From the NCBI GenBank assembly GCA_040006935.1, contig JBDTVZ010000001.1, forward strand, positions 103,772-167,771: 64,000 nt of DNA. Reading direction: 5' to 3'. Source of the DNA: Candidatus Dojkabacteria bacterium (GTDB lineage Bacteria > Patescibacteriota > Dojkabacteria > J137). The position numbers were made by a program, and so were the translations under genes. Of the stretch, positions 2,280-7,795 are shown in pieces (the first letter of the stretch is position 1; the number at the start of each line of letters is the position of its first letter). The notes beneath the pieces were generated by a model. The model did no database searches. It was not told where the DNA came from and was given only the letters and a program-made list of their open reading frames with translations.

Positions 2280-2735
2280 TTGCTAGGAGAATTACCATAT
2301 GAAGTTTCTATAGATCGATATGAAAATACACCATTTCTTTCGCTAATTATAGGTAGCGAATTTGAAACTGAAAGAATACATAAATACGATTATATGAGAC
2401 AGATTGCAACATTACACACTCATCCAAAACATGGAAGTAAGTTTATTTCCTATCAAGATTTATCTGCTGCAGAAATTTGGCAAATAGTATCACCTGGACT
2501 TCGATCATTTTTACTAACAGACCAAGGATTTATTGAGTACAGAGTTCCAGATAACAGAGATGATATCAGAGAGATAATGAATAATTGGGCTAAAAAACAT
2601 AACCTCAGTAACTTAAAACCAGATCAAGACGAATTAAAGCGAAGAGAGCTAATTCAAGGTGGAGGCTATATAGTACAAGAAGTGAAATGGAATGATCCAA
2701 GATTTTCAAACCTCCCAGATGCTTTTATAAATTAG
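2280..2735 (+). CDS. hypothetical protein with a possible JAB/RadC-like metal-binding motif (HTHPKHGSKFISYQD); TTG start as drawn
   Basis: 151-aa ORF. Glu followed by HxHP...S..D resembles the RadC/JAB motif HNHPSG..PS..D, but the match is weak. Confidence 0.35.
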   Translation: MLGELPYEVSIDRYENTPFLSLIIGSEFETERIHKYDYMRQIATLHTHPKHGSKFISYQDLSAAEIWQIVSPGLRSFLLTDQGFIEYRVPDNRDDIREIMNNWAKKHNLSNLKPDQDELKRRELIQGGGYIVQEVKWNDPRFSNLPDAFIN

Positions 2736-2741
2736 AAAAAA

Positions 2742-2813
2742 TGAGGCTACGGAGAATCGAACTCCGATTACCAGATTGAAAATCTGATGTCCTAACCGTT
2801 AGACGATAGCCCC
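2742..2813 (-). tRNA. tRNA-Glu (anticodon UUC)
   Basis: The minus strand reads GGGGCTATCGTCTAACGGTTAGGACATCAGATTTTCAATCTGGTAATCGGAGTTCGATTCTCCGTAGCCTCA. The 7-bp acceptor stem, D arm, TCAGA/TCTGG anticodon stem, TTTTCAA loop and TTCGATT T-loop are all present. No CCA is encoded. Confidence 0.85.
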
Positions 2814-3120
2814 ATTTTTTTCAATTTTAAACTTATCTATTATCCCTTTCTTTATTTGCCAATTACCTTTAACTTCGAGTTCTCTTTTTCTAGCACTAGT
2901 TTTATTTAAGTAGGTTTCAGTATAAACTAATTCATAAGGTATTCTAGACTTTGTTGATCTAACTAATCCCTTATTATGCCTTACTAATCTTGCCTCTACA
3001 TTACTAGTTATTCCGACATAATACCATTCTTTTTTATTACTTTTCAGAATATATAGAAAATACATATCTAATTATAACTTGATTACAGATTGTCACCCGA
3101 AGGGTGATCCCTTTGGGAAA
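2781..3120 (-). mobile_element. putative tRNA-Glu-associated insertion carrying the GIY-YIG gene and a regenerated tRNA 5' half
   Basis: A 340-bp segment lies between two identical 40-bp copies of the tRNA 5' half (2781-2820 and 3121-3160). It contains a UUCG-tetraloop hairpin and the GIY-YIG ORF. Confidence 0.4.
2799..3065 (-). CDS. GIY-YIG nuclease family protein (small stand-alone URI domain)
   Basis: 88 aa. YFLYILKSNKKEWYYVGITSNVEARLVRHN...VYTETY matches the GIY-YIG consensus (YxYIL..S..G..YIG.T.nl..Rl.eHn). The last 15 nt, including the TAA stop, overlap tRNA-Glu positions 1-15. Confidence 0.8.
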   Translation of the reverse strand: MYFLYILKSNKKEWYYVGITSNVEARLVRHNKGLVRSTKSRIPYELVYTETYLNKTSARKRELEVKGNWQIKKGIIDKFKIEKNGAIV

Positions 3121-3160
3121 AATCTGATGTCCTAACCGTTAGACGATAGCCCCATTTTTT
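3121..3160. repeat. 40-bp direct repeat duplicating tRNA-Glu positions 1-33 plus 7 nt of 5' flank (identical to 2781-2820); tRNA fossil
   Basis: Exact identity aatctgatgtcctaaccgttagacgatagccccatttttt at both sites. The upstream copy continues into a 25-nt hairpin insertion (CCAAAGGGATCACCCTTCGGGTGAC), then a remnant of tRNA positions 37-47, then diverges. Confidence 0.8.
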
Positions 3161-3286
3161 CTAATTCTGATTTGTATTTGCGGTGTATTATAGCGTTTTT
3201 GATTAATTTCATCAATAATTTAATGAGCATCCCTCTCCTTGAAAAGGACCTGTCTGCAACATCAATATTGTTAGCATATCTACATG

Positions 3287-3326
3287 GTCAGGCAAGGAGG
3301 GGGGACCGCTTGCGGTGGGTGAGGTC
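3287..3326. repeat. degenerate family B repeat (..GGAGGGGGGACC..GGTGGGTGAGGT)
   Basis: Shares the GGGTGAGGT 3' motif. It lies in a GC-rich island with no convincing ORF. Confidence 0.4.
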
Positions 3327-3368
3327 TAGCGCCTCAAAACCAGAAGAGTGTTTAGGCGCTCCTTTTTA
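3327..3368 (+). terminator. intrinsic terminator-like hairpin (AGCGCCT ...19 nt... AGGCGCT) followed by CCTTTTTATT
   Basis: Perfect 7-bp GC-rich stem followed by a T tract on the plus strand. It lies at the 3' end of a GC-rich, repeat-containing segment at 3230-3330. Confidence 0.45.
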
Positions 3369-3986
3369 TTAAAAACCCAAATCCTCGTTTACTAAAATAA
3401 CTTGCACTCTTCCAGGTAACATTGGAGATACATTATTTAAAATAAACAATTCTCTAACATTACTTTCTGGCATGCCGTATGCAGCTTGAACTCTTTTATT
3501 TTCCTGAGGAAGGACGTCTTCGTAGATTCTTTTTAGTCCACTATCTAAATCTTTTACAATTTTCTTTGTACTAGCAATCACAATAACTTTGTCTGCACCA
3601 TATGCTAAAGCTGGAATTTGACTTCCACTGTTACTTGCCCAAATTAGTTTCCCATCTTGTGTCACTGCATGAGTACTTACAACTGCAAATTCATGAACAC
3701 CACCTATTTTACTCATTTCTTTTTTCTGAGTGTTTCGGTCTAAAGAGTTCATTTGTGTTCTGACAGAATTATATTTTCCTGATTCATTTAATTCTTTTGT
3801 TAAACCAATTTGTTCTAGAGTTTTAGATGTCATTGTCATAACTTCAGAACCTTCTGTAATTAGTTCCAATGCTTGAGCCTTAGCTTTTTCTCCATTTTCT
3901 ACAACATATACTACAAAGCCATTTGACTTAAGACCTTCGACTGCTTTATTTACCTCATCTGAATTCGGAATTGAAACGTGATCCAT
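3369..3986 (-). CDS. LUD domain protein (LutC/YkgG-like, DUF162)
   Basis: 205 aa. GGVHEFAVVSTHAVTQDGKLIWASNSGSQIPALAYGADKVIVIASTKKIV fits the LUD pattern G.TGA.FA.AETG...SNEG....P..H...G.EK.V. Confidence 0.55.
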   Translation of the reverse strand: MDHVSIPNSDEVNKAVEGLKSNGFVVYVVENGEKAKAQALELITEGSEVMTMTSKTLEQIGLTKELNESGKYNSVRTQMNSLDRNTQKKEMSKIGGVHEFAVVSTHAVTQDGKLIWASNSGSQIPALAYGADKVIVIASTKKIVKDLDSGLKRIYEDVLPQENKRVQAAYGMPESNVRELFILNNVSPMLPGRVQVILVNEDLGF

Positions 3987-4081: not shown

Positions 4082-4414
4082 ATGAAAGAATGTACTAGTG
4101 CCGATCCAGTAAATATAACAATTAAAGCCATTGGAGGTAAATGGAAAGCAGTCATAATGTGGCATTTAAGCTCTGGAACCAAAAGGTTTAGTGAATTACA
4201 TAAGCTTGCCACCGGAGTTACTCAAAAAATGCTTACACAACAACTAAGAGAAATGGAAAGAGACGGACTAATTGAGAGAAAAGTCTATCCTATTGTTCCA
4301 CCTAAAGTAGAGTATTCGATTTCCAAATATGGTCAAACACTTCAACCTGTTTTGAAAGCTATGGCTGAATGGGGTGAAAGACATGAAAAGAACTTACGCG
4401 ATAATACTCTGTAA
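4082..4414 (+). CDS. HxlR family transcriptional regulator
   Basis: 110 aa. CPVNITIKAIGGKWKAVIMWHL...KRFSEL...GVTQKMLTQQLREMERDGLIERKVYPIVPPKVEYSISKYG is the classic HxlR/DUF24 winged helix. Confidence 0.85.
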   Translation: MKECTSADPVNITIKAIGGKWKAVIMWHLSSGTKRFSELHKLATGVTQKMLTQQLREMERDGLIERKVYPIVPPKVEYSISKYGQTLQPVLKAMAEWGERHEKNLRDNTL

Positions 4415-6934
4415 ATTCCTAATTGATTTTTCTAGATTAATTCCTTTGCCTACAACTGGTTTCCATAAATCTCCCATTTTATCTAGACGTTTTGAAAGAG
4501 TTTTAATTGTGTAATCTTTAACATCAAGTTTATTATTAACTTCGGACCATTTTAAAGGTGTAGAAACTGACGCCTTAACAACTGGACGAACAGAGTAGAC
4601 GGAAGCAGTTGTTTGACCACTTCGGTTTTGAAGGAAATCTATATATACTTTCCCTTTTCTTTTATCTGGAGATCTTTCTAAACTCACAATGTTTGGCAAT
4701 CTCTTACTGATTGAAATACTAATTATCTCTGAGAATTGTTTTGATTGCTCATAGGTATATTTTGTACCAAGTGGAGTATAGATATGCAATCCTCGTTTAC
4801 CGGAAGTCTTAATATAGTTATCTACCTCGATCTTATCCAAAAGTTCGTGAATTTCTAAAGCAACTTTAATTGTATATTTAAAATCCGCATCATTAGGATC
4901 TACATCAAAAATCATATAGTCTGGATTTTCAATTGAATCTATTCTCGAATCCCAAGGATTAATTTCAATACAACCTAAATTAACCATATAAATTAAAGTT
5001 TCCACATTATTACAAAGAATGTAATCAATAATCCTCTTTCTATTGCCTGAATAAATTCCATAAGTTTTAACAAAGTCCGGATGCGATTGCTCCAAGTCTT
5101 TATGGTAAAAACTCACACCCTCAATACCATCGGGATGCCTGTTCATATTCTGAGGTCGGTCTTTTAAGTATGGCAGAATAAAATCAGATATTTCTAAATA
5201 AAACTTTGCTAAATCTTTTTTCGTATATTTATCCTTAGGCCAATAGATCTTTTGAGGATTTGAGATTAACTCAAGTGGATCATGTTTTGTTTTACTATCC
5301 TGAGATTCATCTCTCCCGCCTGACTGCGCAAGTCGGGCAGGTAATTGATAATTCTTAATTGATAATTCAGTTAGATCATCGGGCTTTTTATCATCTCTGA
5401 TTCGCTGAAATATTGCTTGCCTTAGCATTCCTTCTTTCGTAACTTCTGCATAGTTAACTTCACAAACTAAAATTGGTTCTACAAATACACTTGAATTTGG
5501 AACTGGAGCATCATATTTAAATGGTGAGGAGTCACGCCTATGCTTATCTAGAAGCTCCCTAATTTCTTTAAGAGATTTATTATCGAATCCACTTCCCGTA
5601 TTACCAATATATTTTAAATTTCCATCTTGAAAAGTTCCGAGAAGTAGAGAACCAAAGTGTTCTCTTATCTCAGTTGGTTTGGTATAACCACATATTAAAC
5701 AATCTAACTCATTTACTTTCTTAAATTTCTTCCAATCATCTGATCTTTCTCCACTTCTGTAAATAGAGTCAGCTTTTTTTGCAACAACACCTTCAAAACC
5801 CTTTTTAATCATTTTAGTAAATAATGTTTTCCCTTTTGTCTCTACATAATCTTGAAGTACAATATTATCTTCAAAATTCACTTTTTTATAGAATTCAGCT
5901 AAGGCCTTTTTTCTCTCAATAAGTGGTAACGTTCGTAGATCTAAATTATCTAAAGAGAGCAGATCAAAAACCGTATACACTAAATCTCCTTTTTGAGAGT
6001 TAGGATAATCTTGGAGTAATTCGAATTGTGGAACCTTTTTTTTATTTAAAACGGATATCTCACCATCGATAATTGCATTTACATTAATTTTTTCTAGAGA
6101 TTCAATTAAACTTGGGTACTTTGAATTCAAATTTATTTGATTTCTCGAAAATAATTTTGCCTTTCCATTTTCTAATACTGCAATTGCCCTATATCCATCC
6201 ATTTTAGACTCAAAAATCCAATCTTTATTATCAAAAGGCTTTTCCGCAACAGAAGCAAGCATGGGTAAAGTAAGTCTTGAAGATTTGAGATTTTCAATTT
6301 TGTTTGTTAAATTATCTTCTTCTTTATTCTCTTTTCTCTTTTCTTTATTTGACTCCCACACAATCTCAGTATTTTCAATTTCCTCCATACTTTTCCCACT
6401 TTTTGCAGATAAAGCTTCTTTCTCAATCTTTGTCCCATCAAACTCATCTTTATCTTTGATAAATAACCAAGCATTTTCTCCAGCCTTCTTAAAACGTACT
6501 AAGGCAAATAACCCATGCAATTTCTTTCCAAATAACTCTAATTTTATTTCTCCTTTTTCCAAGCCATCCGCAATAGCTTTATCTGCTTCATTTTGATCTT
6601 TGATATTTGGAATTTGATATTTACCTAGATCCCAAACCATTACTGTACCAGCACCATAATTACCTTCTGGAATAGTTCCTTCAAAATCGTAATAATTCAC
6701 AGGATGATCCTCAACCATCATTGCTAAATGCTTTTCTTTAGAACTAGTTGGAACACCTTTAGGGACAGCCCAACTTTTTAAAACACCATCAGTCTCAATT
6801 CTGAAGTCAAAATGCAATCTCGTGGCTAAATGTTTTTGTACCACAAATCTCATCTTCCCTTCGTCAGATTTAACACCAGAAGGTTCAGGTGTATTCTTAA
6901 AATTTCTTTTTTCATTATATTTTTCTAAAGCCAT
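4394..6934 (-). CDS. ligD: multidomain ATP-dependent DNA ligase LigD (3'-phosphoesterase, ligase and polymerase domains)
   Basis: 846 aa. N-terminal PE domain (RFVVQKHLATRLHFDFRIE..LKSWAVPKG). Ligase motif I KMDGYR. C-terminal polymerase/primase domain (KRGLHIYTPL). Adjacent to ku. Confidence 0.9.
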   Translation of the reverse strand: MALEKYNEKRNFKNTPEPSGVKSDEGKMRFVVQKHLATRLHFDFRIETDGVLKSWAVPKGVPTSSKEKHLAMMVEDHPVNYYDFEGTIPEGNYGAGTVMVWDLGKYQIPNIKDQNEADKAIADGLEKGEIKLELFGKKLHGLFALVRFKKAGENAWLFIKDKDEFDGTKIEKEALSAKSGKSMEEIENTEIVWESNKEKRKENKEEDNLTNKIENLKSSRLTLPMLASVAEKPFDNKDWIFESKMDGYRAIAVLENGKAKLFSRNQINLNSKYPSLIESLEKINVNAIIDGEISVLNKKKVPQFELLQDYPNSQKGDLVYTVFDLLSLDNLDLRTLPLIERKKALAEFYKKVNFEDNIVLQDYVETKGKTLFTKMIKKGFEGVVAKKADSIYRSGERSDDWKKFKKVNELDCLICGYTKPTEIREHFGSLLLGTFQDGNLKYIGNTGSGFDNKSLKEIRELLDKHRRDSSPFKYDAPVPNSSVFVEPILVCEVNYAEVTKEGMLRQAIFQRIRDDKKPDDLTELSIKNYQLPARLAQSGGRDESQDSKTKHDPLELISNPQKIYWPKDKYTKKDLAKFYLEISDFILPYLKDRPQNMNRHPDGIEGVSFYHKDLEQSHPDFVKTYGIYSGNRKRIIDYILCNNVETLIYMVNLGCIEINPWDSRIDSIENPDYMIFDVDPNDADFKYTIKVALEIHELLDKIEVDNYIKTSGKRGLHIYTPLGTKYTYEQSKQFSEIISISISKRLPNIVSLERSPDKRKGKVYIDFLQNRSGQTTASVYSVRPVVKASVSTPLKWSEVNNKLDVKDYTIKTLSKRLDKMGDLWKPVVGKGINLEKSIRNLQSIIA
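5315..5341. repeat. GC-rich imperfect hairpin, family A-like (CCCGCCTGAC-TGCGCAA-GTCGGGCAGG), in frame inside ligD
   Basis: 9 of 10 bp pair in the stem. It encodes the LigD linker segment ARLAQSGGR and is preceded by TATCCTGAG. Confidence 0.5.
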
Positions 6935-7015: not shown

Positions 7016-7795
7016 TTATTTTTTAACTTTAATTGTCTCCAAACTCTTCTGTAGTGATTCCATTAGCTCATCCATATTAGTTGCTTTAGGTGCTTCGTTC
7101 TTCGAAATTTTAAAAGTTTTATTTTTAGCTTTTGCTTCAATAACTTTCTTTAATCCAGTAATATAATCATCTTTGAAGTCTTCGGGAGTAAATTTCTCAG
7201 TCATATTGTCTATTAAATCCATAGCCAAATCCAGTTCTTTTTCTTTCAAATTTGTTGTTTTTGGTACTTTTAATTCTTTAATAGGCTTGATTTCGGAATC
7301 ATATCTAAGTTGATTTAGGATTAAAATGTCTCCATCAAATTTTAATGCACATAAGTGCTCTCTGTTTTTAAAAACAAACTCAGCGATTCCTACTTTTCGA
7401 GATTTCTTTAAAGACTGTGCAAATAACGAATATGTCTTTTCTGCACCCTCAGCAGGTTCCAGATAATATGGTTTTTCGTAATATTTAGAATCAATTTCAT
7501 CTTCTTTTACAAAGCATTCGATATCAATTGTTTTACTTCTATGAATTGTAACTTTCTCAAAATCCTCTTCTTCTAAAATTACATAATCACCTTTACTAAA
7601 TTGAAATCCTTTAACTACATCTTTCCAGGAAACTTCCTTTCCTGTATGTGTATCTATTCTTGCATAACGAATTGGAGATTTATCTTTCTTACTTAACAAA
7701 TCTAAATCTAATTCTATAGATTCTGAACCTGTATATAAATTCACTGGGATGTAGATTAATCCAAAAGATATTCCTCCTGTCCAAATAGGTCTCAT
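7016..7795 (-). CDS. ku: Ku protein (non-homologous end joining)
   Basis: 259 aa. MRPIWTGGISFGLIYIPVNLY...IRYARIDTHTGKEV matches the bacterial Ku N-terminus and core. Confidence 0.9.
   Translation of the reverse strand: MRPIWTGGISFGLIYIPVNLYTGSESIELDLDLLSKKDKSPIRYARIDTHTGKEVSWKDVVKGFQFSKGDYVILEEEDFEKVTIHRSKTIDIECFVKEDEIDSKYYEKPYYLEPAEGAEKTYSLFAQSLKKSRKVGIAEFVFKNREHLCALKFDGDILILNQLRYDSEIKPIKELKVPKTTNLKEKELDLAMDLIDNMTEKFTPEDFKDDYITGLKKVIEAKAKNKTFKISKNEAPKATNMDELMESLQKSLETIKVKK

Follow-up and report, generated by a model that had tools for sequence, protein, structure and literature searches.

Judged by its published description, the closest known system to the locus considered here appears to be the Ssn family, 94-amino-acid (aa) single-domain GIY-YIG enzymes that bind the hairpin repeats (NTS/SRM) flanking their genes and cut only single-stranded DNA (ssDNA), a few nucleotides (nt) 5′ of the hairpin, leaving double-stranded DNA and RNA untouched (Nat Commun 2025, PMC11893778). 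NTS is the Neisseria hairpin repeat bound by SsnA, with the core ATTCCC[N8]GGGAAT (PMC11893778). The locus under study lies in a metagenome-assembled genome (MAG) of Candidatus Dojkabacteria (Patescibacteria), in a window of 64 kb that is the whole stretch of DNA analyzed, and comprises an 88-aa GIY-YIG nuclease open reading frame (ORF) set between a partial, hairpin-bearing copy of tRNA-Glu and an intact tRNA-Glu(UUC) gene. The nuclease resembles the Ssn enzymes in being a single GIY-YIG domain of ~90 aa (88 aa here, under 150 aa) with no DNA-binding domain, and in the placement of its catalytic Tyr/Tyr/Glu residues (5/16/62, compared to 6/17/64 in SsnA). As in the Ssn family, short GC-rich inverted repeats able to form hairpins (20 to 50 nt by the family definition), with a TCCC...GGGA core, lie beside the gene, the hairpin sequences are clade specific, and the layout resembles that of an insertion sequence, a likeness noted by the Ssn authors too (PMC11893778). 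Here, however, the hairpins sit in the loops of a partial tRNA copy and not in dispersed repeats, and the gene lies inside a tRNA unit, part of the tRNA being duplicated, whereas tRNA is nowhere mentioned in PMC11893778. We consider it probable, though well short of certain, that the locus is a selfish Ssn-like cassette lodged in a tRNA unit, gained and lost by recombination between tRNA repeats through a mechanism that we infer.

Free-standing GIY-YIG homing endonucleases (SegB, I-TevI) also have nuclease genes beside tRNA genes and filled and empty states at a conserved site. They have a long DNA-binding domain and cut double-stranded targets, whereas the present enzyme is a bare 88-aa catalytic domain, and they create no hairpin-disrupted partial tRNA copies. 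SegB, found in the tRNA cluster of phage T4, is described as promoting the inheritance and segmental amplification of tRNA regions (PMC2330249, PMC13096335). Integrase-mediated tRNA islands and prophages share with the locus a tRNA-segment direct repeat at both ends and an intact, regenerated tRNA, but here an integrase is absent, the insert totals 340 bp, the 5′ part of the tRNA rather than its 3′ end is duplicated in the window, and the displaced copy is systematically hairpin modified. Integrase-borne islands and classical homing endonucleases each fail one defining feature here. Mobile mitochondrial endonuclease ORFs (e.g., that of Allomyces atp6) carry a replacement piece of the host gene; like the present locus, they place an endonuclease ORF in an essential gene, preserve function through a duplicated segment, and leave the displaced segment as a pseudogene. 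In those systems, however, the donor segment replaces that of the host to give a chimeric gene, whereas both copies here are host sequence, and the genes concerned encode proteins and lack hairpins, whereas here the gene encodes a tRNA. Group I introns of Patescibacteria tRNA genes occur in the same phylum and at the same unusual anticodon position, 35/36 (PMC13011429), but the present locus has no ribozyme core, an uninterrupted tRNA, and a different nuclease family.

The elements of the locus, all on the minus strand, are given below in 5′-to-3′ order.

3187..3215, minus strand: sigma-70-like promoter TTGATG-17-TATAAT (consensus score 10/12), the native tRNA-Glu promoter, now 5′ of the partial tRNA copy
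3154..3166, minus strand: native tRNA leader AATTAGAAAAAAT, complementary to the trailer of the intact tRNA
3119..3153, minus strand: partial tRNA-Glu copy (psi-tRNA), 5′ part, tRNA positions 1-35, identical to the intact gene
3093..3118, minus strand: 26-nt GC-rich double hairpin, splitting the anticodon of the partial copy between positions 35 and 36
3081..3092, minus strand: partial-copy remnant CAATCTG-TAATC, tRNA positions 36-48 with G43 missing
3066..3080, minus strand: 15-nt spacer AAGTTATAATTAGAT before the ORF start, aligning with degenerate T-stem sequence in related locus L008
2799..3065, minus strand: single-domain GIY-YIG nuclease ORF, 88 aa, from ORF reading and a Pfam match
2814..2826, minus strand: duplicated leader AATTGAAAAAAAT 5′ of the intact tRNA (repeat D1), now coding for the ORF C terminus
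2742..2813, minus strand: intact tRNA-Glu(UUC), Rfam 63.8 bits, ARAGORN 2741-2814
2729..2741, minus strand: tRNA trailer ATTTTTTCTAATT, complementary to the native leader

The original prediction, made from the letters of the window, had recognized both the intact tRNA-Glu and an 88-aa GIY-YIG ORF ending inside it, and both are borne out. It had further described an identical 40-bp copy of the tRNA 5′ half lying 340 bp upstream. A repeat finder returns a direct repeat at 2779-2826 and 3119-3166 (48 nt, 96% identity) with exactly that spacing, and the exact run within it extends to 42 nt, made up of 7 nt of leader and tRNA positions 1-35, with similar leader sequence reaching 13 nt upstream. 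A tRNA search had been expected to return one intact and one partial hit; the intact gene was called, and no tRNA was called in the partial copy (3119..3153) by ARAGORN or Rfam. Where a single 25-nt C(UUCG)G hairpin had been read, the insert is 26 nt and forms two adjacent hairpins (hairpin 1, 3108-3118, TCCCaaaGGGA; hairpin 2, 3093-3107, TCACCCttcGGGTGA) or, in an alternative fold, one long hairpin. The tRNA remnant that follows is present, but it covers positions 36-48 minus G43 and not 37-47. The overlap of the ORF tail with tRNA positions 1-15 also stands, except that these last 15 nt comprise four sense codons (G-A-I-V) and the stop TAA, in the D loop, rather than five codons and a stop. 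The GC-rich adjacent double hairpin is the sole such structure in the window and is absent from 10 shuffles, and it is therefore not a product of chance. Folds of the segment give z-scores of -2.35 and -3.96 as DNA and an unexceptional -1.25 as RNA. The GIY-YIG gene, likewise present as a single copy in the window, is the only gene of the 340-bp insert, of which ~73 nt are noncoding; no tyrosine or serine recombinase gene lies within the insert, whose neighbors are a LUD-domain gene and an unknown 151-aa ORF. An Rfam scan of 2300-3700 at E ≤ 10 found tRNA only, with no group I intron (Intron_gpI) and no other family.

The closest genome retaining the synteny of the window, also of Dojkabacteria (L089/L090), has an empty site. 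Its gene order is that of the window (LigD, an HxlR-family gene, the LUD gene, tRNA-Glu; LUD protein 82% identical), and it carries the promoter, tRNA-Glu, and trailer with neither the ORF nor a partial tRNA copy. Because a syntenic relative has an empty site, the window segment is an insertion or duplication, and the comparison shows the putative cassette to be an insertion relative to that site, with the tRNA kept intact via partial duplication. An insertion into the tRNA-Glu unit that spares the tRNA had been foreseen in the original prediction, as had the value of looking for an empty site in related genomes. The promoter motif gctataat also stands 5′ of tRNA-Glu in L089, and the two tRNA-Glu genes are identical at 70/72 positions, the 2 differences making up one compensated acceptor-stem pair. 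The leaders are similar, the trailer attttttctaat is identical, and leader pairs with trailer in both genomes; this complementarity, conserved in the empty-site relative, lengthens the acceptor helix of tRNA-Glu to ~20 bp and may be a precursor-processing signal. Of the two leaders in the window, the one that precedes the upstream partial copy is the perfect partner of the trailer (inverted repeat I1, 3147-3166 and 2730-2749, 20 nt, 95%), and the partial copy therefore holds the original promoter and leader. The intact tRNA has a duplicate leader with slight changes, and this sequence now codes for the tail of the ORF.

The ORF matches Pfam GIY-YIG (PF01541) over residues 1-67 at E = 3.5e-12 (46.9 bits; cutoff, 22.6), and residues Y5, Y16, R26, H30, N31, and E62 are invariant in the family alignment. 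An AlphaFold2 (AF2) model (predicted local distance difference test [pLDDT] of 84.9) shows the GIY-YIG α/β fold, and its top Foldseek matches are UPF0213 BH0048 and Slx1, a structure-specific nuclease for branched DNA, followed by the catalytic domain of I-TevI. By sequence comparison, the nearest solved relatives are UPF0213 proteins (1zg2, E = 6e-6). Neither Pfam nor the AF2 model places a DNA-binding domain beside the catalytic domain in the 88-aa protein, and NCBIfam has no family for the nuclease. The stop codon falls inside the tRNA D loop in the window (2799-2813) and in 20/87 related loci, with overlaps typically of 15 or 22 nt. Since the stop codon lies within the tRNA, cleavage by RNase P (tRNA 5′ processing) would give a nonstop mRNA, which could restrict nuclease levels.

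Sequence comparison makes the locus one member of a large, widespread cassette family for which we found no published description; our literature search found no paper in which GIY-YIG genes of this kind are tied to either tRNA genes or partial copies of tRNAs. Relatives of the ORF number 367 in species-representative genomes, and an exhaustive profile search returned 5050 representative clusters at E ≤ 1e-3. A same-strand tRNA abuts or overlaps the ORF in 81 of 103 nonredundant loci, and in 66 of the 103 a partial copy of that tRNA lies on the other side of the ORF. The association was replicated in an independent metagenome set, where a tRNA lies next to the ORF in 20/22 close relatives versus 1/19 distant UPF0213-like GIY-YIG genes; the metagenome search for close relatives that supplied this set gave no hit above 58% identity. 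Two orientations occur: a partial copy (5′ part), the ORF, and the intact tRNA, or the intact tRNA, the ORF, and a partial copy (3′ part). The cassettes are scattered patchily over unrelated phyla and occur beside tRNAs of many isotypes (Glu, Gln, Tyr, Ser, Pro, Ala, Asp, Asn, Cys, Met, and Arg, among others). ORF clades track the isotype, and ORF lineages stay with one tRNA isotype. No match was found by tblastn against plasmids, and against phages there were 14 weak hits, of which the two inspected (in Rhizobium and Ralstonia phages) had no tRNA link. An Rfam scan of ten tRNA-less loci at the gathering threshold found nothing new.

The layout of the window recurs at tRNA-Glu beside diverged ORFs in distant genomes and in other gene neighborhoods. 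L001 (P0002; ORF 65% identical) combines a partial copy of tRNA-Glu and a homologous pair of hairpins with the ORF and an intact tRNA-Glu gene, while L008 (ORF 68% identical) has a tRNA-Glu cassette in a different gene neighborhood, with a hairpin pair identical to that of the window at 25/26 positions and a partial copy that reaches tRNA position 54. The tRNA-derived arm of L008 carries its own host's acceptor and anticodon-stem sequence, and that of L001 is likewise its host's own. Across the family, hairpins are clade specific, the hairpin pair moves with the ORF, and the tRNA-derived arm follows the host. The original prediction had taken the upstream copy for an unselected fossil of a recent event. 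This lacks support: the layout recurs at tRNA-Glu in L001 and L008 and at many other tRNAs, the hairpin stems covary (below), and the partial copies in most loci are identical or nearly so to the adjacent tRNA, though ORFs differ by 32-60% between loci. Because this identity is independent of ORF divergence, it reflects homogenization or turnover within a conserved architecture and not one recent accident. The accompanying idea, that the element brings a replacement 5′ half, conflicts with the 5′ half always being the host's lineage-specific sequence; in the window, the duplication takes in 13 nt of host leader as well.

When each partial copy was chained to its tRNA, 81 inserts were located, of which 35 lie in the D loop, 27 in the anticodon loop (typically at 35/36 or 36/37), 10 in the T loop, and 9 elsewhere. 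The inserts are 69% GC within AT-rich genomes and fold at -0.48 kcal/mol per nt, compared to -0.23 for shuffles. Most comprise one or two short hairpins with TCC...GGA ends, often with GGATCC at the join, and loops mostly of 3 nt. Across 11 tRNA-Glu-type loci (anticodon stem plus two hairpins), 88% of cells are paired and both sides change in 12/16 pairs; none of 500 shuffles match these values, and slid partners are ~40% paired. Because the stems covary, the hairpins are under structural selection. Tandem duplication followed by decay, which had been left as an alternative, does not account for hairpins placed precisely in loops. The hairpins precede the ORF in one orientation and follow it in the other, and this variable 5′/3′ placement, together with the triloops, favors a role at the DNA level over one as an mRNA leader or in translation. 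The repeat begins exactly at tRNA +1 in 29/31 loci, the outcome expected if tRNA homology sets the junction. A search of metagenome contigs for the exact hairpin pattern gave no hits. Two other origins were rejected: P-nucleotide-type palindromes, since the hairpins are not palindromes of flanking sequence, and staggered-cut target-site duplication as a general mechanism, given the repeat start at exactly +1.

Mobility is also suggested by tandem arrays of two to four units of ORF plus partial copy, one of them in a cultured Melioribacter isolate, by ORF-less arrays of partial copies, and by a sister clade with terminal inverted repeats. In the isolate (Melioribacter sp., L023, 1011-2093), two spacer-ORF-partial copy units and then a third spacer and ORF come after tRNA-Ser(CGA), and each partial copy spans tRNA positions 55-89 and bears hairpins in the T loop; in L022, the ORF is present four times. 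In L004, three ORF-less tandem units (2553-2900), each a partial 3′ tRNA-Gln copy with a double hairpin in the T loop, sit upstream of a tRNA-Glu(CUC) and a GIY-YIG cassette. In a sister clade (L019, L031, L040, and L067, at ~1470-1790; L074, at ~1005-1320), the ORF is not beside a tRNA but is bracketed by ~20-nt terminal inverted repeats (CCCCCACACC..AACGAG), resembling a miniature insertion sequence. On a Kaiserbacteria contig (L003, 1943-2035, the same as L046), a 21-nt tandem duplication, TGGTTAGGACAGCGCCTTTTC, lies within the tRNA beside the ORF, at the anticodon; ARAGORN reports this tRNA as an intron-containing tRNA-Gln, but its sequence resembles tRNA-Glu(UUC).

We propose the following cycle for a selfish, tRNA-lodged cassette. 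The ORF presumably lacks a strong promoter of its own and would be expressed by read-through from the tRNA promoter, ending in the tRNA D loop. By analogy with Ssn, the nuclease probably binds a hairpin in ssDNA and nicks a few nt 5′ of it, the loop hairpins of the partial copy probably being its ssDNA sites. Nicking at the hairpins would increase recombination between the tRNA direct repeats, and this recombination would excise the cassette precisely and restore the empty site. Either the excised circle or transforming DNA arriving from outside could then reenter by homology into any copy of the same tRNA. Such a Campbell-like, homology-guided cycle would also generate tandem arrays, while the partial copy would stay identical to the selected tRNA through gene conversion from it. 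Beyond this, we raise as a tentative and rather doubtful suggestion that the cassettes form a distinct class of mobile element, in which a bare GIY-YIG domain is aimed at tRNA genes by nucleic acid structure and homology, with no protein DNA-binding domain, and in which the hairpin-bearing, host-matching arm (as ssDNA, possibly RNA) serves as a self-updating guide for nicking and recombination at the same tRNA in any genome.

Several observations weigh against the proposed cassette and its cycle. The window (13 nt) and L030 duplicate host leader too, which homology-driven integration does not explain. The hairpin occurs once per 64 kb, and there is thus no dispersed repeat here, unlike NTS. 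GIY-YIG enzymes hydrolyze DNA and cannot join strands, and joining therefore falls wholly to the host. The SRM motif HGTCWYN(0-2)YYVSBRHN(0-5)WNVSBRGN(0-2)RNCYNB has no hit within 400 nt of 87 ORFs or at the window locus, and the one hit found in another part of these loci does not rise above background. The empty-site comparator is one only, the LUD homologues P0157, P0161, P0162, and P0163 having other synteny and no tRNA-Glu, and a secondary, precise deletion would explain the empty site equally well.

An alternative hypothesis, that of the original prediction, is a small integrative element that brought its own replacement tRNA 5′ half in a single recent insertion into the anticodon loop, with the upstream half left as an unselected fossil. 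The direct repeat with an intact downstream tRNA, the empty site in a relative, and the insert at anticodon position 35/36 are all consistent with it, and rapid turnover could explain why most partial copies are undecayed. However, the 5′ half and the 13-nt leader are host sequence, down to the lineage-specific C5:G68 pair, and the acceptor and anticodon stems in L001 and L008 likewise have the sequences of the respective hosts; the hairpins, unlike a neutral fossil, covary, persist across ORFs 40-68% identical, and are found in D and T loops as well, and no integrase is present. We therefore regard this origin as quite unlikely. Also unlikely is a domesticated host gene, an Ssn-like ssDNA nuclease cotranscribed with tRNAs that might restrict incoming ssDNA (as SsnA does in Neisseria) or process structures at highly transcribed tRNA genes, with the partial copies as by-products of tandem duplication. 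Bacteria of the Candidate Phyla Radiation (CPR) rely on DNA uptake, which suits such a role; the gene and the tRNA lie on one strand, closely packed and under a common promoter, the catalytic residues are conserved, and there is one copy per 64 kb. SsnA, moreover, modulates transformation (PMC11893778). Against domestication stand presence and absence at the same site between close relatives, tandem arrays of two to four copies, a sister clade with terminal inverted repeats, ORF-less arrays of hairpin-bearing partial tRNA copies, and a patchy distribution across unrelated phyla and many isotypes, all of which are typical of selfish DNA.

We judge it very unlikely that the cassette is a module acting at the RNA level, in which the partial copy and hairpins are transcribed into a tRNA-like RNA with a regulatory effect on the ORF or into a partner of the nuclease that leads it, as scaffold or guide, to tRNA genes. 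The covariation would fit RNA pairing equally, the partial copy retains all the tRNA stems within the same transcription unit, and the hairpin-adjacent arm always matches the host tRNA, like a guide beside a scaffold. SsnA, however, does not bind RNA (PMC11893778), the side of the ORF on which the hairpins lie, 5′ or 3′, depends on the clade, triloops are atypical of functional RNA hairpins, the RNA fold is unexceptional compared to the DNA folds, no Rfam family matches, and an 88-aa domain leaves little space for an RNA-binding surface. A split or intron-containing tRNA, with the upstream half joined to downstream sequence by splicing of a degenerate group I intron that bears a homing endonuclease, would fit the Patescibacteria group I introns at tRNA position 35/36 (PMC13011429), the position of the insert here too, but is effectively refuted. 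There is no group I core at E ≤ 10, only ~73 nt of the 340-nt interval are noncoding, the tRNA-Glu is contiguous and high scoring, and the homing endonuclease genes of those introns encode HNH and not GIY-YIG enzymes (PMC13011429). The intron-containing tRNA named in the original prediction as a possible refutation of its own reading falls with it.

The neighborhood of the cassette holds two further features. LigD (846 aa, with ligase and primase-polymerase domains; 4394-6934, minus strand) and Ku (7016-7795, minus strand) make up a complete nonhomologous end-joining system near the cassette, and the LigD synteny is common to the window and L089. A long GC-rich hairpin, CCCCCTCCTTG...CAAGGAGAGGG (3230-3310, minus strand; fold z = -2.0), with no Rfam match, lies between the LUD gene and the tRNA promoter, and a similar motif is found in L089 at 3655-3695.

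The locus is best seen as an instance of a widespread structured association between a tRNA and a minimal nuclease, not as the scar of a single recent integration, and our literature search found no published description of this association. It provides a natural context for a poorly understood class of enzymes, the thousands of single-domain GIY-YIG (Ssn-like) nucleases, and many natural nuclease/hairpin pairs for ssDNA tools. For annotation, it accounts for a class of tRNA fragments and for odd "intron-containing" tRNA calls. The cassettes are also a testable system for homology-guided mobility and for the concerted evolution of short repeats. If the selfish, tRNA-lodged cassette is the correct reading, then essential single-copy tRNA genes would be parasitized without an integrase or an intron, by duplicating part of the tRNA and filling the loops of the spare copy with hairpins, in the streamlined genomes of CPR bacteria as well as in Bacteroidota, Ignavibacteria, and Marinimicrobia.

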